A stretch of 64,000 nt of DNA from a virus (taxonomy: Duplodnaviria; Heunggongvirae; Uroviricota; Caudoviricetes), in IMG/VR virus record IMGVR_UViG_3300023238_000006, positions 1 through 64,000 of that record; one strand, 5' to 3'. The notes under the pieces were generated by a model. That model was not told the DNA's origin. It worked only from the letters and a program-made list of their open reading frames with translations, and searched no databases. This document shows positions 3,259 to 27,846 of the stretch, piece by piece (position 1 is the stretch's first letter; every line of letters starts with the position of its first letter). The translations under genes were made by a program, and so were the position numbers.

Positions 3259-4968
3259 TTAGGCGTAGCTGGTGTATGCACTGTCTTCTTCAACATCTGA
3301 GGAGGAGTTGCCCCACATAGCCCTATCTCTGCTATTAGTTGGTTTGAAGCTACCGGGTGATATGTTTGGAAACCTAAGCTCCATCATGCCTAGTTGACTA
3401 ATAACATCTGGAAAGTCATCATGACCTGCAAAGTTGCTCCATGTTGTGTACTTCAATTGGCTCATAGCTTCCTTCATATCAGGAGTGTCAACAAGTTCTA
3501 CTGGAAAGTGTATCTTGTGATTCTGAAACTGTGGTAACATAAACCTAAATCTCTCATGTTTACCCTGGCCACTAGACCTACTGTTAATGCCTTCTGCCCC
3601 AAACTTAGCACCCTTCTGTCTAGCAAAGGTAAACCATGTAGTTCTCTTTAACATCATCTCTTTAAGGGAGAACAGGTGGCTACGCTGCTGTCCATCAATT
3701 TCTATCCCAACCTCTACGTTTTTGCCCTTGCTCTGCCACATCTCCACCATGTTAAACAGCTCATTGTACTGCTCACCAATCCCTTGACGACGTAGACACA
3801 GATCTAGGAGGTAGTAGTCCCTGTTACTATTAACAGCCCAGCACGCTATTGCAGAGAAGTCTGACTTAGCTTCTGATGTAGTTGTGAAGTCGGTAGTTAT
3901 ATAGATGTTGTATGCATCGATCTTCTTGATTAAGTCTTTACGGCTGTACATCTCAATCATGTCTGTAGATATCATCCTATCCTCATCGGAACTAATACGC
4001 AACATCCTCTCTTGGTTAAATGACTTAGTGGACTTAGATGCTATTGCCTGTCTGTATTGTCTTATAACAGCCTCGTACGGATGCATAGCTGGCCAAGCAC
4101 CTTTGAACTCCTCAGCTGTCATATCAGCGGATATACTTTCACAAATAGGTAGCAGCACAGGGGTATATCCTCCACCTGTAAGTGTTTCTACCACAGGATC
4201 CCCAAGGTTGAAGGGAGTAGCTACTGAAAATATTCTTCCTCTAAGCCCCCCTACCAAACCATTCTCAAGGTCACTTGCGATTAGTTCTCTTAGAAGGCTC
4301 ATCTGTACCTCTGAGTAAGCTGCCTGTGTATTTAGAATAACGTCATCCATAATAGCATGATCGTAACGTTCACCATAGTTATCTCGGTTACCACGGATAT
4401 TACCACCTATACCGAGGTATCTAATTAGAAAGGCTCTACTCTTCTCTTTACCAATCCCATTTCTAACGAAGCGTGATTCAGTCTCTGTAAAGTCCATAGA
4501 CTCAAACCAGTTATTACAGAATACACTGTCCTCACACAAAGCCTGGACAGCTTTACTCATAACCTTAGCACCACCCATTGCACTTGCACCTAGAAGCAGG
4601 TGAAACCGAGTCTTATCACCATTAGGTACTACCCCTTTAATGGCACAGTAAATAGGGTAGAAGGCAGTAACTACTGTTGACTTAGCTAAGCCACGAGAAG
4701 CAACTATAGCAACCCTGTGAGGGTTAATAGGGATTGAGTCACATACTTCTTTGGAGTATGGAAATTGTTCTTTAGTAACTTGTCCAAACAGTACATCAAC
4801 CATGAAATAATGGGCTAAGGGCGTAGTAAATTCAAAGTCCTCTCCAGCTACCATTCTCATGATAGCAAAGAACTCTAATGCTTCCTCAGATGGGATGTAA
4901 TTGGGGAAGGAGTAATCAATAGTATTGAGAGCTTCCTCCATATCGAATAAGTGTAAATCTATACTCAT
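3259..4968 (-). CDS. terL: Terminase large subunit (ATPase plus nuclease).
   Basis: 569 aa. P-loop-like VASRGLAKST. C-terminal acidic nuclease-type segment KIDAYNIYITTDFTTTSEAKSDFSAIACWAV...YYLLDL, typical of T4/T7-type large terminases. Confidence 0.7.
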   Translation of the reverse strand: MSIDLHLFDMEEALNTIDYSFPNYIPSEEALEFFAIMRMVAGEDFEFTTPLAHYFMVDVLFGQVTKEQFPYSKEVCDSIPINPHRVAIVASRGLAKSTVVTAFYPIYCAIKGVVPNGDKTRFHLLLGASAMGGAKVMSKAVQALCEDSVFCNNWFESMDFTETESRFVRNGIGKEKSRAFLIRYLGIGGNIRGNRDNYGERYDHAIMDDVILNTQAAYSEVQMSLLRELIASDLENGLVGGLRGRIFSVATPFNLGDPVVETLTGGGYTPVLLPICESISADMTAEEFKGAWPAMHPYEAVIRQYRQAIASKSTKSFNQERMLRISSDEDRMISTDMIEMYSRKDLIKKIDAYNIYITTDFTTTSEAKSDFSAIACWAVNSNRDYYLLDLCLRRQGIGEQYNELFNMVEMWQSKGKNVEVGIEIDGQQRSHLFSLKEMMLKRTTWFTFARQKGAKFGAEGINSRSSGQGKHERFRFMLPQFQNHKIHFPVELVDTPDMKEAMSQLKYTTWSNFAGHDDFPDVISQLGMMELRFPNISPGSFKPTNSRDRAMWGNSSSDVEEDSAYTSYA

Positions 4969-18395: not shown

Positions 18396-18878
18396 ATGGG
18401 ACTAATCGTAATAGCAATAATTGTAGCAGGGGTATATTACTGGATTACTAGTAGTACTAACCACATATCTCAGCAACAAGATAACAGTATACTAGAGGAA
18501 TGGGAGGATGAACTCCTCAGACGTAACACAGATGCCTCACAGCCTCCAATTCCCTCTACACCACCTAGGCCCTACCCAAGGTGGGAAGTTGGCTCTAAGG
18601 TACCTACGATTGATTATGACAGCTATATACGGTCAGACGCCTGGCTTAAAGGCCCTGCTAGAAGCTTAGCTTTAGTTAGGGATAGCTTTAGCTGTACTAT
18701 GTGCGGCTCTGGTAACCACATAGAAGTTCATCATATTAACTACTTAACAATGGGGGATGAAGACATAGACTACCTAGCAACACTTTGCAAGTGCTGCCAC
18801 GGCTATACACACAAAGTAGCAGGGAGAGGGGCTGGTAACTACCCACCGCTCCTAAAACCAAAGGACACTACATGTTAA
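18396..18878 (+). CDS. HNH endonuclease with an N-terminal transmembrane segment (160 aa).
   Basis: CTMCGSGNHIEVHHINYL...LCKCCHGYTHK is a canonical HNH/His-Me finger. Confidence 0.65.
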   Translation: MGLIVIAIIVAGVYYWITSSTNHISQQQDNSILEEWEDELLRRNTDASQPPIPSTPPRPYPRWEVGSKVPTIDYDSYIRSDAWLKGPARSLALVRDSFSCTMCGSGNHIEVHHINYLTMGDEDIDYLATLCKCCHGYTHKVAGRGAGNYPPLLKPKDTTC

Positions 18879-19944: not shown

Positions 19945-20064
19945 TATGTTTAGTTCCGTATCAACTCAAACATTCGTACCAGCTGGCCTAATGGCAGCGG
20001 TAATACTATGTGTAGCAGGAATCATGCTATATAGCAACTACATAAACACACCAGAGGCAGCATA

Positions 20065-20892
20065 ATGAACAAAATCAAACTAACACTACTTACAGCACTA
20101 CTAGCTCTTACATTCACTGGATGTATATCACCCTCGTCAGTAGACGAAGGCATGGAAGCAACACTTGTAAAGAAGCCTTTCATCTTTGGCCACGGTGGTG
20201 TAGACCATGACCCGGTAGCAACAGGGTTAGTATGGACTGCATTCAGTACATCAGTTGTTAGAAAGAGCATAAAGCCTTTCAACGTTGACGAAATATTCGA
20301 CGACCTGGTAACATCTGACAACAACCCTGTGGACTTTAAACTACACCTCAAGCTACAACACATTGAAGGCAAGACTCCAATCCTAGTAGAGAACTTTGGT
20401 GAAGGCTGGTACATTAACAACGTTAGAGAACCACTGCGTAACATCGTAAGAAACTTCACTAAGTCTCACAAGATGTTTGATATGACAACTAACAAAGGTG
20501 TAACTGATGAACTACAACTCCTAGTAATGACTGAGGTATCGGCATTACTAAAAAGCATTGGTATGCCTACAGTACTACTACAAGCCTCTGTAGGTAAAGT
20601 ATTACCTCCTGAAGCAGTCATCGCAGCAACTATCAAAACAGCTGTACAAAAGCAAAATGTTAAAACTCAGAACGAAAGAGTATCTGCAGAGAATGCTAGA
20701 GCTGAGGCTGAGAAAGCATCAGCTAGGGCAGACAAAGCCTATATGCTTGCAATAGGTATGGATGCTAATCAATACCTACAGATGAAGAAACTAGACATCC
20801 AGAAGTTAGCCGTACAAAGTGCGGCTGACGGTAAGATTGCTCTAAGCCTAATTATGGGTGGAGATGTACAACCTATGTACAATATAAAGTAG
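20065..20892 (+). CDS. Putative lipoprotein (275 aa) with a C-terminal coiled, AEAE-rich segment that resembles the SPFH/band-7 family.
   Basis: Signal peptide plus LTFTGC lipobox-like. ERVSAENARAEAEKASARADKA coiled segment. The family assignment is weak. Confidence 0.4.
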   Translation: MNKIKLTLLTALLALTFTGCISPSSVDEGMEATLVKKPFIFGHGGVDHDPVATGLVWTAFSTSVVRKSIKPFNVDEIFDDLVTSDNNPVDFKLHLKLQHIEGKTPILVENFGEGWYINNVREPLRNIVRNFTKSHKMFDMTTNKGVTDELQLLVMTEVSALLKSIGMPTVLLQASVGKVLPPEAVIAATIKTAVQKQNVKTQNERVSAENARAEAEKASARADKAYMLAIGMDANQYLQMKKLDIQKLAVQSAADGKIALSLIMGGDVQPMYNIK

Positions 20893-20899
20893 TAGCTTA

Positions 20900-21825
20900 A
20901 TCTACTACCACTGGGCACTTAGGTGCCTACTATAGTAAATTAAAAGGAAACCTATGGAATATCTAGTAACCCTACATGGAGAAACTCTATGTACACTAAC
21001 AGCAAACAGTTTAGAGCAGGCAGAGGCTATTGCCTTTAGAATGTATGGTTTAGAAGTTGACATAAAGGAAAAGTAATGAAGAGTCTATCAAGACTTAAGT
21101 GTGATGCTTGGTTCTATAGGAATTAGGGTAGTATATTTATAGCTATAGTTGTGTTTGGTGGAGCATTGATTGGTTACCTATTTGGTAACTGTAGATGAGC
21201 TTATTACTCGTAGTTCTATGAGTAGTTGCATTATGTATATTATTAAAAGGATAAGTGATGAAGTATTTTGTAATAGTAACAGAGGAAAATGAAGAGCCTT
21301 GTGAAACTAGAAGTGATGCTGGTATGTTCTCGTATCTTGAACCTTACTTTGTAAATACTACTCATTAGAAGAGGCTTTATTGCCCGTGAATACATCTTAT
21401 TGGAGGGACAATTATACCCCTCTTATGATAGTAACAGTATATGATTACAACTAAAGGAAAAGAGATGAAAGTATATTACATAGGTAAAATGATTGGTGAA
21501 TGCGATGAAAATGACTCTAAATGGTCAATAGAAGGTATCTTTGATTCTAAACAATTAGCATTTTCAAAACATGGTAGAAGATGAATTTTGTATTGAGTTA
21601 GAAATGAATGTTAAATTGCCTTCAGAATTAATAAAACCTCCTGAAGGAACATACTGGTGAAAAATTTATAACAAAATTATAAACTATGATGGTGTAGAAG
21701 TAAAGGATTAAATTAGAACTTAAGTATTAGTATAAACTTATATATAAAGGTTTATTCTTAAGCTTTTTTTATTTGTTACCTAGTATATAATACTATATAA
21801 CAAATAAAAAAAACGGAGAACAAAG
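20900..21825. other. AT-rich (about 30% GC) segment poor in ORFs. It contains a palindromic AT stretch (TTATTTGTTAC...ATAACAAATAA) just upstream of 21826.
   Basis: Composition by eye. Only tiny ORFs. The inverted repeat was read directly. Confidence 0.4.
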
Positions 21826-22365
21826 ATGAATAAAGTAGAATTACAAGAAGCACTAAGACTTCATAAGTTATGGTTAAATGATAAACCTGGTGGAATTAGA
21901 GCTGGTTTAAGTAAGGCTAATTTAAGTAATGCTAATTTAAGTTATACTGTTTTAAGAGGTGCTGATTTAAGAGGTACTAATTTAAGTAATGTTGATTTAA
22001 GTTATACTGATTTAAGAGGTGCTGATTTAAGTAAGGCTAATTTAAGAGGTACTAATTTAAGTTCTACTGATTTAAGAGGTGCTAATTTAAGTTATACTGA
22101 TTTAAGAGGTACTAATTTAAGTAATGTTGATTTAAGATGTGCCGTAGGAAACAACAAAGAAATAAAATCGCTTCAAATAGGTACTTATTTAATCTCTTAT
22201 ACAGCAGTTGTTTTAAATATTGGTTGTGAGTCTCACTCTATCAAAAAGTGGGCTTGTTTCAGTGATGAAAGAATAGCTAGTATGGATGAAGAGGCTTTAG
22301 AGTTTTGGAACTTAAACAAACATATAATTTTAGAGTTATGTAACAGAGGAGAAGGAAATGACTAA
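21826..22365 (+). CDS. Pentapeptide-repeat protein (179 aa) with A(D/N)LSx repeats and a C-terminal domain of about 70 aa. Very AT-rich codon usage.
   Basis: ANLSNANLSYTVLRGADLRGTNLSNVDLSYTDLRGADLSKANLRGTNLSSTDLRGANLSYTDLRGTNLSNVDL. Nucleotide-level internal repeats. Confidence 0.7.
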   Translation: MNKVELQEALRLHKLWLNDKPGGIRAGLSKANLSNANLSYTVLRGADLRGTNLSNVDLSYTDLRGADLSKANLRGTNLSSTDLRGANLSYTDLRGTNLSNVDLRCAVGNNKEIKSLQIGTYLISYTAVVLNIGCESHSIKKWACFSDERIASMDEEALEFWNLNKHIILELCNRGEGND

Positions 22366-23020
22366 TAAAGAAAGATATGAAGCTAACCCTGAGAAGTATG
22401 TAGTTTACTGTAGCTACGATGTTACGTGGTTTAAACATGCCAACCAGGACAATGTAACATTCACAAACTCAGGAACAAAGTATAAGCTAATCCTAGCTTC
22501 TCATTCTCACATTGCTGATTCCATTATAGCTGATGGGAGTGTTGAGGTTGAGCAATACTCCACATTATACAATAAAGAAGGTGATAGTAAAATACTAGAT
22601 TTCACTCTAAAAGCTAAAGACTTCTTTAGTGTATATCAATTAGTATATGACTACAGACTAGCAGATAAGCTAGAGATAGATATACCTGATGGTGTTGATG
22701 TACTAGCAGAACCTAAAGAGGAGAAAGAAGTAGCTATAACAAGAGTTGAAGTAATTGGTTTAGAGGGCAGAGAGTTTGTTAGCCATCTTAAAGGTGGTAC
22801 TTATACCACATCCCTACAAGATGATGGTAGAACTCTAAAGATATTTGAAGAACCAATCCAAAAACCGTGGCACGAATATGAGAATAATTTTCCAGCACTT
22901 ATGTATGATGTATTCCATGAACTATTTGAGATAGTAAACAGTAAAATGGGTATTAATAGCGACCACAGACTAGCTACTAAAGAAGAGGTTATGGCACTAT
23001 ATTATGAAGGTAAGAAGTAA
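22358..23020 (+). CDS. Hypothetical protein (220 aa).
   Basis: ORF track. ATGA overlap with the upstream gene. Confidence 0.5.
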   Translation: MTNKERYEANPEKYVVYCSYDVTWFKHANQDNVTFTNSGTKYKLILASHSHIADSIIADGSVEVEQYSTLYNKEGDSKILDFTLKAKDFFSVYQLVYDYRLADKLEIDIPDGVDVLAEPKEEKEVAITRVEVIGLEGREFVSHLKGGTYTTSLQDDGRTLKIFEEPIQKPWHEYENNFPALMYDVFHELFEIVNSKMGINSDHRLATKEEVMALYYEGKK

Positions 23021-23054
23021 TGACACAAGAACAAGCAAGACTAAAGGGTGAATA

Positions 23055-23264
23055 ATGAAATACTTTATAGTAAGTTACTCATTCCCTGACGGAAATGGGA
23101 GTGTAAATGTAGAAGACCCTATATACCCTAACTACGAAGAGTTGTTAGAGCGAGTCAAAGCTACAAATGTACATGTCGATAGCATCTCTATTATAAGTAT
23201 AATGAAATTAACAGCAGCAGAATATTATAGATTCTACTCAAAAAAAAGGGTAAGTAATGGCTGA
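23055..23264 (+). CDS. Hypothetical small protein (69 aa).
   Basis: ORF track. Confidence 0.4.
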   Translation: MKYFIVSYSFPDGNGSVNVEDPIYPNYEELLERVKATNVHVDSISIISIMKLTAAEYYRFYSKKRVSNG

Positions 23265-23445
23265 ATCACATGAACTACGCTGCAGGAAGTATAAGCAGCA
23301 GATAGAAAACCTCAAACTAGACTTAGCAGATGCCGACAAAATGATAGCAGAGCTATCAGCTATCATCGTTAAACGTGATGCTGTCATAAAAGCTACATCT
23401 AATACAATTGCTGATGGTACTGTACGAAGGCTTAAAGGTAAATAG
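23257..23445 (+). CDS. Hypothetical small coiled-coil protein (62 aa).
   Basis: ORF track. Confidence 0.4.
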   Translation: MAESHELRCRKYKQQIENLKLDLADADKMIAELSAIIVKRDAVIKATSNTIADGTVRRLKGK

Positions 23446-23992
23446 CCAAGAAGTTATCAGCCCTTGCAGGTAGGTTAACAGAAGTCAGATATGCAAGTAT
23501 CGTGGACTTTAAGCAGTGCAAACGAAGAGACGCTGCAAGGCTAGTTTGGAGTCTTAGGTAGCTATGGTAATATGTTTGTTATCATGGCTATTACCATCCG
23601 CTGTGGAGCGAGGTTACGACCAGTACATATTTATATGTTACCCCCTAGGAGGTTTCAGCTGCTATCGTATTGCTCCCAATTATGTTGCGGTCGTCTAATA
23701 GTAGGGCCCAATCTAGTGTAATTGTGCTTCAAAACCACACTAAGAAACTCTTAGTCGTCTAATTGGCAGGGCACACTCAACAGGCAATGCAGGTGCAAAT
23801 CCTGCCCACAACTAAATACGTTGTATATATAACTTTACTGAGTGACTTCCTAGACAAAACTTTGCATCTAGGTGCAACTTGCAGCATAGGTAAGGTTACA
23901 TATACAACTAAATAATTCTAAAAAGATTAAGAAGCCTACTTACTGAATAGTATTTAGGTCTAGGATGGATAAAGTGGGCCTTACGAGCACAT

Positions 23993-24020
23993 AAAGTGGT
24001 TCGAGTCCACTTAATCTTTT
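23993..24020 (+). terminator. Hairpin AAGTGG-TTCGAGT-CCACTT followed by AATCTTTTT. It is either a rho-independent terminator or the T-arm of a tRNA-like element. A 7-bp acceptor-like complement AAGATTA lies at 23923.
   Basis: Direct reading. The loop TTCGAGT is a canonical tRNA T-loop, but no anticodon arm could be folded by hand. Confidence 0.35.
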
Positions 24021-24064
24021 TAGAGTTATTTGCAGTAATTACATATACAACTAAAAGGATAACT

Positions 24065-24238
24065 ATGAGTACACCAGTAATAACAGAAGAAGAAGCATTA
24101 ATACTAATAAATGATGCAGCACTAATAGTAGAAGGCAACTACATGGTAATGGAAAGTGATGCCTTATATATTATACAAAGAATATTTGGTACTTATACAC
24201 ATCCTTTCAACTCAACTCAAGAGGAGTTAACCCTATGA
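24065..24238 (+). CDS. Small acidic protein (57 aa).
   Basis: aaaaggataactATG. The in-frame GTG-started track ORF 23996 is probably an artefact. Confidence 0.4.
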   Translation: MSTPVITEEEALILINDAALIVEGNYMVMESDALYIIQRIFGTYTHPFNSTQEELTL

Positions 24239-24444
24239 CAAGACTAGAAATACATCAACAACTAAACACTACTGGTAGCACAGAAGTTATGGCGCTAATA
24301 GAACAGGTCTTACACCTCTCACAAGTTTCTTGTGAAGGCTGTATCTTCCTACCTGAACCAGACGACACATATCCAGAGTACTGCGGTATGTGTAGCCGTT
24401 TCTACGGGGACCACCATACTACCGAAGCTCACCGTAACGACTAA
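24235..24444 (+). CDS. Small Cys-rich protein (69 aa).
   Basis: ORF track. CEGC...CGMC. Confidence 0.4.
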   Translation: MTRLEIHQQLNTTGSTEVMALIEQVLHLSQVSCEGCIFLPEPDDTYPEYCGMCSRFYGDHHTTEAHRND

Positions 24445-24463
24445 CATAACCTAAAGGATTAAT

Positions 24464-25099
24464 ATGAATACAGTAACGCTAACACTAGAACTAACTTACA
24501 CTCAAGCTACTAAGGTCTTAGCAGCTGTAGAACGTATATGCTCACCAGACTCGCACACAGGGGCTACAAGCCCTAAAGTCTGCCCAGGGGATACACTTAT
24601 CACGGTAGCCAATACTATGCTATTTGGAGACCCTATAGAGTCTCCTAGAGCTGAACAGCTATCCCAAACTGTTAATAACCCCATGGCAGCTAAATCCAAT
24701 AAATCTATAAACATCAACGAACTTGATGTTATTTACGGTAAGACAGACAGACCATCAGCAGGAGACGTCACTACCACTAGCTACGGAGCTCACCACACCC
24801 TTAAGTCTATACCAGTAGTAACTAAGCCTACAGGACGGTCTAAGACATCTATGCCTAGCTTTGGGCGTTCACAAGCACAAGTTGATGCCTATGCAGCCTC
24901 AGAGGCATCTCGTATAGAGATAGCTGACGAAGAAGCTATGTTAAAGCAGGAGCGTAAAGAAGCTAAAGAAATGGAAAAAGCTGAGATAGCCAAAGATAAG
25001 GCTAGAGCTCAAAAAGAAATAGATGACATTAAGTCAGCGGTAATTGAAGAGCCTCTACCAGGAGTTGCTGCACCTCTTAAGAAGCCTTGGGAATTATAA
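24464..25099 (+). CDS. Hypothetical protein (211 aa) with a Lys/Glu-rich C-terminus.
   Basis: ORF track. RBS aaaggattaatATG. Confidence 0.5.
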   Translation: MNTVTLTLELTYTQATKVLAAVERICSPDSHTGATSPKVCPGDTLITVANTMLFGDPIESPRAEQLSQTVNNPMAAKSNKSININELDVIYGKTDRPSAGDVTTTSYGAHHTLKSIPVVTKPTGRSKTSMPSFGRSQAQVDAYAASEASRIEIADEEAMLKQERKEAKEMEKAEIAKDKARAQKEIDDIKSAVIEEPLPGVAAPLKKPWEL

Positions 25100-26521: not shown

Positions 26522-26812
26522 ATGGAAACATGTAAAGACTTCATCTTAAAGATGACACAAATGGATAAAGCGGAGCAATTCGTAATAGCAGGTATAGTAC
26601 ATAGCTGGACACCAGAGTCCTCAATAGGTTCAGTAGTTATTAAGACTACTGATATGAGCAGTGCAGATGCTAATAAGTTTATTAAAGGCATTAAGACCCT
26701 AACAGCTAAAGGCTTAGTACGTAGAATTAAGAGGTCTCATTATATGATGCACCCTAAAACTTTAGTACCTAGAGATAAAGAACTCGCTATGGAGACATGG
26801 GAGGGGCTGTAA
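26522..26812 (+). CDS. Hypothetical small protein (96 aa), possibly DNA-binding.
   Basis: ORF track. Basic C-terminal half. Confidence 0.45.
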   Translation: METCKDFILKMTQMDKAEQFVIAGIVHSWTPESSIGSVVIKTTDMSSADANKFIKGIKTLTAKGLVRRIKRSHYMMHPKTLVPRDKELAMETWEGL

Positions 26813-27846
26813 TGGCTAGAAAATTGCTACCAGCGGATATCTTACAAAGATTCATAACCACACATGGGCAAACCTATGACTACACTAACAGTGATATAAC
26901 TACTAGAACAACAAAAATCTCAATAAGATGCAGGGTTCACGGGCCTTTTACACAGATGCCTAAAGAGCATATGCTGGGACAAGGATGCCCTAAGTGTGGG
27001 CATTTAGCCACAGCGGCTGCTTTAAGGCACTCTCAAGAAGAATTTGTACTAAAGGTGCAGGTAATCCACAATAACAGGTATGACTACTCATTAGTGAAGT
27101 ATACGTCTGATGCTGATAGCATTGATATAATTTGCAACACTCACGGTGTATTCTCACAAATAGCCTCATCCCATGTCCAAGGAAGTGGGTGCCCTAGGTG
27201 TGCAATTGAGAAAACACATAGTGAGGCTACGTATACAACTGCTGAATTCATCGAAAAAGCTAGTGTAAAACATAGTAATTATTACACATACCCAGAGACT
27301 AACTATGTTAAAGGTACTGTTAAAGTGGTGATAACATGCCCTGTTCATGGGACTTTTCAACAAACACCAGTGGCACACCTAACAGGCCAGGGGTGCAAAG
27401 TGTGTGTCACTGCAGAAAGAGGGCTAAAAACCAGAAACTCAACAGCTAACTTTATAGAGCAGGCAGGTAAAGTGCATGGTAATAAATACTGTTATGCGAA
27501 TACCTCTTATGTACTATCTGTTGAAAAAGTTACTATTACATGCCCTATACACGGGGACTTCACGCAGACTCCTACTAATCATCTGTATGGTTATGGATGT
27601 AGTAGATGTGGTGTGGTAAAATCAAATAAAAGGTTTCACCACATACCCACAACGCTTTACTACTTTAAAATAAAAGATTGTTGGAAAGTGGGCATAACAG
27701 TATTTGATGTAAAAACACGTTACAACACTGTGGATCACTCCAATATTAGTGATTTGACAACATGGAAATTCTCATCAGGCAAAGAAGCTTATGAGTATGA
27801 GCAGAATATCATATCACTTAACAAAGAACATGCCTATACGGGTTAA
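26797..27846 (+). CDS. Putative homing-endonuclease-like protein with four tandem zinc-ribbon repeats (HG-F-Q-P--H--G-GCP-C) and a C-terminal T5orf172/GIY-YIG-like domain.
   Basis: VHGPFTQMPKEHMLGQGCPKCG, THGVFSQIASSHVQGSGCPRCA, VHGTFQQTPVAHLTGQGCKVCV, IHGDFTQTPTNHLYGYGCSRCG, then LYYFKIKDCWKVGIT. Confidence 0.55.
   Translation: MGGAVMARKLLPADILQRFITTHGQTYDYTNSDITTRTTKISIRCRVHGPFTQMPKEHMLGQGCPKCGHLATAAALRHSQEEFVLKVQVIHNNRYDYSLVKYTSDADSIDIICNTHGVFSQIASSHVQGSGCPRCAIEKTHSEATYTTAEFIEKASVKHSNYYTYPETNYVKGTVKVVITCPVHGTFQQTPVAHLTGQGCKVCVTAERGLKTRNSTANFIEQAGKVHGNKYCYANTSYVLSVEKVTITCPIHGDFTQTPTNHLYGYGCSRCGVVKSNKRFHHIPTTLYYFKIKDCWKVGITVFDVKTRYNTVDHSNISDLTTWKFSSGKEAYEYEQNIISLNKEHAYTG

Follow-up and report, generated by a model that had tools for sequence, protein, structure and literature searches.

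Pentapeptide-repeat proteins (PRPs) of the Qnr, MfpA and AlbG type are small cytoplasmic proteins built on a right-handed quadrilateral beta-helix of A(D/N)LXX units, with an extra element C-terminal to the helix. Structures of QnrB1 show that two loops interrupting the beta-helix are needed for gyrase protection. Ocr and ArdA, encoded by early accessory genes of phages and other mobile genetic elements, are extremely acidic. In Salmonella, the PRP gene orf232 lies in the early left operon of phages L and ST64T, which differ there by one 15-bp repeat (PMC8022706). The Salmonella gene has also been named 'pipB3', carries 7-27 pentapeptides among S. Pullorum strains, and has had an effector role guessed for it from repeat similarity (PMC6449608). 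Here we describe a PRP gene in a 64,000-nt stretch of DNA from a phage of the Caudoviricetes (positions 1 to 64,000 of IMG/VR record IMGVR_UViG_3300023238_000006, called the window below). The gene encodes 179 aa on the plus strand (21826-22365). By its sequences, the family to which it belongs is a very large, phage-specific one of three-part PRPs, in which the conserved parts are an N-terminal cap and, above all, a C-terminal domain (C-domain). We tentatively read the product as an early cytoplasmic factor that acts by binding a protein.

The window PRP shares with Salmonella orf232/'PipB3' and with gp043 of the Rheinheimera Barba phages the same three-part architecture (LxxHxxWL cap, array, C-domain), the C-domain motif IGCQxH...W...F.D..I..MD..AL.WW, placement in an early operon or early block, and an array that shifts in 15-nt steps between near-identical phages. 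Amino acid identity to these homologues is only 36-51%, however, and the window copy is AT-biased and lies in a lytic phage of ~100 kb, whereas in Barba and Salmonella the gene exceeds its own genome in GC. With Qnr, MfpA and AlbG, which are among its Foldseek matches, the window PRP has in common the beta-helix, a small cytoplasmic product and an added C-terminal element, but the fold of that element differs, the helix is shorter and variable, and the surface is not consistently acidic. With Ocr and ArdA it shares a comparable genomic slot and possibly a rod-like shape; the folds are unrelated, there is no homology, and the window protein is neutral.

Family, repeat array and C-terminal domain

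Sixty-nine full-length homologues carry the cap motif LxLHxxWL ahead of a pentapeptide stretch of variable length and end in a C-domain that follows the pattern GNxKEIKSLQIG.Y.I.Y....IGCQ.H....W..F.D..I..MD..AL.WW. C134, W142 and M153 are invariant in these sequences, and H13, W16 and G23 are nearly so. Among 1.84 billion representatives, a profile of the C-domain reached at least 3058 clusters (50% identity) with E ≤ 1e-3; at the stricter limit of E ≤ 1e-10 it still reached 2064. In these proteins the domain sits at the C terminus, almost always behind pentapeptide repeats, and at least two kinds of N-terminal head occur. Two PHROG families, phrog_31567 and phrog_37032, cover it. Members include a gene in all 111 Barba phages of the collection (111/111), annotated there only as 'pentapeptide', and genes of P22-like Salmonella prophages and of Acinetobacter, Edwardsiella, Ralstonia, Campylobacter and Pseudomonas phages. 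No paper in the literature searched gives this family of PRP plus C-domain a function. Whether alone or as a profile, the C-domain had no match in Pfam, PDB sequences or NCBIfam, and no PADLOC model matched it or the whole window PRP. Its fold matches in BFVD at E ≤ 1e-3 are phage proteins only, the named ones being pentapeptide-repeat proteins. An assignment to the PipB/PipB2 type III effectors was rejected, as only the repeats match (NF011744, 40.4 bits versus a cutoff of 274; NF011743, 39.1 versus 354).

A preliminary description of this DNA, made from its letters, had proposed a protein of A(D/N)LSx pentapeptide repeats with a C-terminal domain of about 70 aa. The window protein is a PRP by Pfam PF00805 (Pentapeptide; E 1.1e-26, 92.4 bits, gathering cutoff 20.2), and its non-repeat C-terminal domain measures 74 aa (residues 106-179). 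The repeat formula is roughly right but incomplete. Tandem Repeats Finder delimits a 15/30-nt array at 21901-22142, made of 16 units [A/T/V][D/N/V]L[S/R]x in which xNLS(N/Y/K) alternates with xDLRG, the latter accounting for half of them. An AlphaFold2 (AF2) model built with the alignment of the 69 homologues (mean predicted local distance difference test score, pLDDT, 94.2) predicts an uninterrupted solenoid with one bridge residue per five residues over 27-107, giving ~17 rungs or ~4 coils. Against the PDB, Foldseek matched this model to PRPs only: Np275/276, Rfr23, Alr5209, HetL, MfpA, QnrB1, AlbG and the N-domains of NleL and SopA. Model and fold matches thus agree with the beta-helix that structure prediction had been expected to give. 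Modelled alone, the C-domain has a pLDDT of 83.

The number of repeats differs between close relatives. Within one Barba species the alleles encode 165, 170, 190 and 205 aa and do not differ at their ends. Three of the four share their upstream flank at 100% identity; that of the fourth aligns at 97%, probably offset by an indel in gp041. Downstream, the flanks agree at 99.7%. The Salmonella alleles form a ladder of five-residue steps between 204 and 234 aa. Variants of the window phage with 134 and 139 aa (L005 and L006, from two other samples) differ from the window solely inside the array. All three array variants of the window strain are in frame, and several independent metagenomes agree at 100% identity on all sequence outside the array. 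The 134- and 139-aa variants come from k=141 assemblies, and because internal repeats reach at most ~85 nt and are imperfect, a false junction is unlikely. Slippage or recombination among the 15-nt units would let the array length drift in five-residue steps. Because the counts shift singly, and each unit turns the end of the helix by ~90 degrees, the azimuth of the cap relative to the C-domain cannot be critical.

Three further observations concern such repeats in sequence records. First, public assemblies of the window phage and of the Barba phages (L012, L013, L014; Barba records MT4972xx) often start or end within the pentapeptide array, so the gene is probably often truncated or collapsed in databases. 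Second, in Barba record 4S the gene is frameshifted and contains an ambiguous base. Third, the Barba phages carry a second, larger 'pentapeptide' gene, gp041 (~326 aa, PF01469), two genes upstream of the homologue (L015-L018, L001). It is 963 nt long in Barba35A versus 978 nt in other phages, and this 15-nt difference means that one Barba early block holds two length-polymorphic repeat genes.

Composition, genomic contexts and horizontal origin

The window comes from a large lytic phage of ~100 kb. It encodes a large terminase, DNA polymerase, primase, ribonucleotide reductase (RNR) and thymidylate synthase (TS), and the same phage recurs at 99.9-100% identity in several metagenome assemblies, one of them a 97-kb contig. 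A plus-strand block that runs from ~9.9 kb onward holds first many small unknown genes and, further on, TS, NAMPT, DNA polymerase (PolA), primase, RNA ligase and RNR. The PRP gene stands ~12 kb into this block, ahead of TS, NAMPT, PolA, primase and RNR.

The low-GC island reported in the preliminary description exists, but at ~20950-23400 it is wider than was claimed and takes in the next genes. In 300-nt windows GC falls to 0.247 (z -4.6 versus the window mean of 0.404, sd 0.034), far beyond chance, and GC skew rises to +0.47 (z +3.6), both returning to the window norm by ~23300-23500. Of all 500-nt windows in the 64 kb, the ten poorest in GC have their starts at 21301-21751 and together cover 21301-22250. 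Foreign composition and codon usage, also proposed earlier, are borne out for the PRP gene. Its GC (0.296) and its GC at third codon positions (GC3, 0.139) are the lowest among the 56 ORFs (open reading frames) of at least 100 aa in the window, for which GC averages 0.405 (sd 0.026) and GC3 0.351 (sd 0.057), and TTA makes up 25 of its 28 leucine codons versus 27% elsewhere in the window. Amplification of the repeats does not account for the low GC, because the non-repeat N-terminal and C-terminal parts are also low (0.293 and 0.318).

The closest genes at the DNA level are those of L023 (72.8% identity over 470 nt) and of L003 and L024 (~67%), and the match is confined to the PRP gene, with no similarity in the flanks. 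These three loci are phage-like, of 30-33% GC, with PRP genes of GC 0.30-0.33 and GC3 0.16-0.19. Where phage GC is higher, the gene equals or exceeds its surroundings in GC (gene versus flanks: Barba, 0.474 versus 0.354; L002, 0.450 versus 0.347; P22-like prophage, 0.567 versus 0.477; Acba_3, 0.478 versus 0.372; PEi21, 0.563 versus 0.532; DU_RP_II, 0.641 versus 0.603). The window copy bears the composition of its phylogenetically closest, low-GC clade, and the horizontal acquisition that had been suggested, with such a phage as the source, is therefore well supported. The slot itself is variable: relatives sharing the neighbouring SPFH gene at 60-67% identity have unrelated genes at the PRP position. 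No clean empty site for the island was found among the SPFH-sharing relatives compared.

In eight of nine other contexts, homologues lie in early, replication or recombination blocks; the exception is L023, where the homologue is 1.7 kb upstream of TerL. In a P22-like prophage the gene occupies the PL operon between N, which it follows directly, and cIII; Erf and the anti-RecBCD gene Abc2 come further downstream in the operon. Acinetobacter phage Acba_3 has it between a 755-aa N6-adenine methyltransferase with an HsdR-N domain and a RecA-like gene. It precedes an RNaseH-like gene and a helicase in Ralstonia phage DU_RP_II, and in the Barba phages it belongs to a block just past a divergent early switch. 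In L003, L024 and L022 it directly follows a ~780-aa primase-polymerase (prim-pol)/D5-like helicase gene; one small ORF intervenes in L002 and two in Edwardsiella phage PEi21. A UvrD-like helicase follows in L002, L003 and L024, and PolA also in L002 and L003. The recurring prim-pol/helicase neighbour may reflect a functional link to replication, but it is found in only a subset of the phages and is absent beside the window PRP gene.

The surrounding island

The 0.9 kb upstream of the PRP gene had been described as nearly ORF-free. It contains four mini-ORFs (40, 16, 36 and 39 aa; Table 1), three of them called as genes in the identical metagenome contig L011, although coding density is only ~40%. 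An 18-nt motif joining a Shine-Dalgarno (SD) sequence to an ATG occurs three times here, at spacings of 182 and 207 nt, and each copy heads one mini-ORF of 16-39 aa. Iterons, and with them a replication origin, were considered and rejected; the direct repeats found are these SD-ATG motifs. Mini-ORF 1 had no Pfam or PHROG match, and mini-ORF 3 no family match. Mini-ORF 2 may be the broken gene of a small membrane protein, because a hydrophobic stretch continues in frame past its TAG. Mini-ORF 4 may be a frameshifted relic, because reading can be continued in the +1 frame as far as 21710, with a single in-frame TGA; its repaired translation had no match in the phage collection. The low coding density suggests decay, and the mini-ORFs may be micro-proteins or decaying cassettes.

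Just upstream of the PRP gene lies the palindromic AT-rich element noted earlier. It is real, with 23-nt arms that are 91% complementary, is unique in the window, and is identical in the strain variants L005 and L006; the same palindrome is absent upstream of the Barba homologue. It holds the promoter-like pair TTGTTA-17-TATAAC and abuts the SD of the PRP gene. This pair has no other copy in the window and is a weak match to the consensus, for which a scan of the window found no enrichment. When the palindrome is folded as RNA (minimum free energy -24.1 kcal/mol, z -2.8), UUCUU pairs with GAGAA of the SD. Rfam gave only sub-threshold hairpin matches to the palindrome on the AT-rich stretch. 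The imperfect hairpin that precedes it looks terminator-like, although it is too GC-poor for a terminator scan.

One reading of this arrangement is a putative terminator, promoter and operator of the kind typical of a moron. Transcripts reading through from upstream would be translationally masked, and those started inside the palindrome would be open. As in morons of the lambdoid type, the window PRP gene is deviant in composition and variable in position among relatives, with the terminator-like hairpin and its T-run and the promoter-like palindrome directly upstream. Unlike morons, it resides in a lytic phage and has no terminator directly after it, being apparently coupled to the next ORF.

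Downstream follows a series of small ORFans. The first has a start codon that overlaps the end of the PRP gene, from which translational coupling is predicted, and it matches only itself among 5.8 billion proteins, with no Pfam, PHROG, PADLOC or NCBIfam match and no relatives in viral contigs. A near-DNA search of 20000-24000 against phage records gave no match. On the other side of the island, the SPFH/Band-7 gene encodes a membrane scaffold, which is unusual in the early region of a phage; the gene is 60-67% identical in four IMG/VR phage contigs (L007-L010), and the genes downstream of it differ in each. The wider region lies between two HNH-type endonuclease genes, candidate homing elements that may add to local mosaicism. 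Beyond the island, genes are again sparse over ~620 nt, here at normal to high GC, and near the end of this stretch lies a hairpin, AAGTGGTTCGAGTCCACTT, whose core, GGTTCGAGTCC, resembles a tRNA T-arm. ARAGORN found no tRNA in the window and Rfam nothing in 23300-24600; the hairpin region may be what is left of a tRNA, or an RNA not yet described.

Table 1. Positions of features in the window and, in the last five rows, of prim-pol/D5-like helicase genes in other phage loci
Feature	Position	Strand	Remarks
Large-terminase gene	3259-4968	minus	
HNH-type endonuclease gene	18396-18878		PHROG HNH endonuclease
SPFH/Band-7 lipoprotein gene (phrog_200)	20065-20892		Upstream neighbour of island
Low-GC, positive-GC-skew island	20950-23400	+	Core trough 21400-22400
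Mini-ORF 1, 40 aa	20954-21076	+	SD AAAAGGAAA before ATG; gene call in L011
SD-ATG motif TAAAGGAAAAGnnATGAA, three copies	21063-21080, 21245-21262, 21452-21469		
Mini-ORF 2, 16 aa	21077-21127	+	MKSLSRLKCDAWFYRN, then stop; behind first SD-ATG motif copy
Mini-ORF 3, 36 aa	21258-21368	+	Behind second SD-ATG motif copy
Mini-ORF 4, 39 aa	21465-21584	+	Behind third SD-ATG motif copy
Imperfect AT-rich hairpin, terminator-like	21722-21770	+	22-nt arms, 73% complementary; stem 21722-21765, then T7 run
AT-rich palindrome, 49 nt	21764-21812		Arms 21764-21786 and 21790-21812, 3-nt centre
Shine-Dalgarno GGAGA	21815-21819	+	6 nt 5' of ATG
PRP gene: N-terminal cap	21826-21900	+	Helix at residues 3-17, LxLHxxWL motif, then GG-RA lead-in (AF2)
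PRP gene: array, 16 pentapeptide units	21901-22140	+	15-nt units, 30-nt higher-order period; predicted right-handed quadrilateral beta-helix
PRP gene: conserved C-domain and stop codon	22141-22365	+	Four strands, three helices
ORFan, 220 aa	22358-23020	+	ATG overlaps end of PRP gene (ATGA); inside low-GC island
Gene-poor stretch	23446-24064		
Hairpin AAGTGGTTCGAGTCCACTT	23994-24012		
HNH-type endonuclease gene	26797-27846		phrog_681 endonuclease
prim-pol/D5-like helicase, L003	2792-5131		
prim-pol/D5-like helicase, L024	3630-5969		
prim-pol/D5-like helicase, L022	1382-3736		
prim-pol/D5-like helicase, L002	3325-5637		
prim-pol/D5-like helicase, L020	691-3039		

Possible functions and their meaning

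The reading that we favor, though only tentatively, is that the window PRP gene is an early accessory cassette, acquired horizontally by a large lytic phage, whose product would be made early in the infected cytoplasm and would act by protein-protein binding. The target would be a DNA-processing or defence enzyme of the host or of a rival element. The conserved C-domain would provide specific contact or self-association. The beta-helix would serve as a stiff rod or a steric plug with no need for one particular length or azimuth, and in the window copy it would not act as an electrostatic DNA mimic. Several points weigh against this reading. No experiment or known homologue assigns a function or partner, and no single neighbour gene is conserved across all of the contexts examined. 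Early expression in the window phage is deduced from position only, and the promoter-like pair is weak and not enriched. Much of the surrounding island looks decayed, so that the gene could be a passenger. Finally, the polymorphism may be partly technical, since several contigs break inside the array and some variants are short-read.

An anti-defence role for the window PRP is possible. A broader proposal, which we consider possible but doubtful, is that proteins combining pentapeptide repeats with this C-domain form a new and widespread class of phage counter-defence or host-enzyme-hijacking factors with a helix that is hypervariable under an arms race. The C-domain would then dock on a host DNA-processing or immune protein, and changes in helix length would allow escape from host sensors or retune reach. 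The window gene would be a freshly transferred example, a single-gene cassette moving between unrelated phage lineages.

Among the alternatives, the one that survives best, though we consider it unlikely, is that the protein acts on gyrase or topoisomerase IV in the manner of Qnr, MfpA and AlbG, protecting the enzyme from poisons (microcins, or the toxins of abortive-infection or toxin-antitoxin systems) or tuning it for phage replication. Gyrase is the established target of every small cytoplasmic bacterial PRP of known function, and it is also targeted by the small phage proteins Igy and Gip (PMC10886550). The predicted beta-helix superposes on MfpA, QnrB1 and AlbG, and in L002, L003, L022, L024 and PEi21 the gene is beside or within replication genes (prim-pol/helicase in 5/5, UvrD-like in 3/5, PolA in 2/5). 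The details of the protein fit less well. Scores against the NCBIfam models are far below cutoff for both Qnr (NF033086, 30.5 bits versus 240) and MfpA (NF000349, 40.7 versus 360). The AF2 model has no Qnr-type loops, its five-residue periodicity being unbroken over 27-107, and the fold of the C-terminal module differs from the dimerization element of Qnr and MfpA. A helix of ~4 coils whose length varies by single units is, moreover, hard to square with a mimic of a T-segment of defined length, and the protein has a neutral net charge.

Less probable still is an electrostatic mimic of B-DNA that, like Ocr or ArdA, soaks up type I restriction, BREX or similar complexes. Its genomic settings are suggestive, in that this is an early accessory gene, the P22-like copy lies between N and cIII in the PL operon, where phage L has ral, a gene for alleviation of type I restriction (PMC8022706), and the Acba_3 copy follows an anti-restriction-type methyltransferase. 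Some family members are strongly acidic, down to a net charge of -16, and hypervariable length would fit an arms race. Acidity is, however, not conserved: net charge over the 69 family members lies anywhere between -16 and +6 (median -3), and several have a pI above 8. The window PRP has a net charge of 0 (pI 6.83) and its repeat part one of +2 (pI 9.05). Conservation lies in the C-domain rather than on the helix surface, a monomer of ~4 coils would, by established PRP geometry, mimic only ~6 bp, and no PADLOC-related or known anti-restriction homology was found. Furthermore, a repeat number that shifts by single units is at odds with a mimic whose geometry would have to be fixed. DNA mimicry of the Qnr/MfpA or Ocr type, as the preliminary description had suggested, is thus disfavored by the neutral charge, the uneven charge of the family, the distant Qnr and MfpA scores, the missing loops and a short helix of free length. 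On this sequence-level test of charge, the window copy bears little resemblance to a charged mimic of DNA.

Equally improbable, in our estimate, is that the gene is a passenger without a current role, in a decaying imported island, with an array that drifts by slippage. Such a view accommodates the ~40% coding density and apparently broken ORFs of the surrounding 0.9 kb, the ORFan neighbour, and the different genes at this position in SPFH-sharing relatives. It sits poorly with an intact ORF behind a good SD, with the presence of the family invariants H13, W16, C134, W142 and M153, with non-array sequence that is 100% identical in several independent metagenomes while three array variants all stay in frame, and with a family that persists across thousands of phage lineages. 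We consider it very improbable that the protein is a structural one, of the tail or a fibre. Beta-solenoids are common in tail fibres and spikes, but with 179 aa this protein is small, and PHROG gives it no structural annotation. P22-like phages have it in the PL operon, and here and in eight of nine other contexts it lies among early, replication or recombination genes rather than in a structural module; the exception is L023, where it is 1.7 kb upstream of the large terminase gene.

In general, phage pentapeptide-repeat genes are routinely annotated and then ignored. The window gene belongs to a coherent, phage-specific family of at least 3058 clusters, defined by an undescribed C-domain and consistently placed in early, replication or recombination regions; between phages that are otherwise identical, nothing changes faster than the number of repeats. 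The family also counsels caution toward labels such as 'Qnr-like' resistance gene or type III secretion effector that are given from repeat similarity alone. Salmonella phage L and other P22-like phages, together with the Rheinheimera Barba collection, offer tractable models. Its size, C-domain, placement and repeat variability therefore make the family a well-defined and cheap-to-test candidate for a new mechanism of host interaction or counter-defence.

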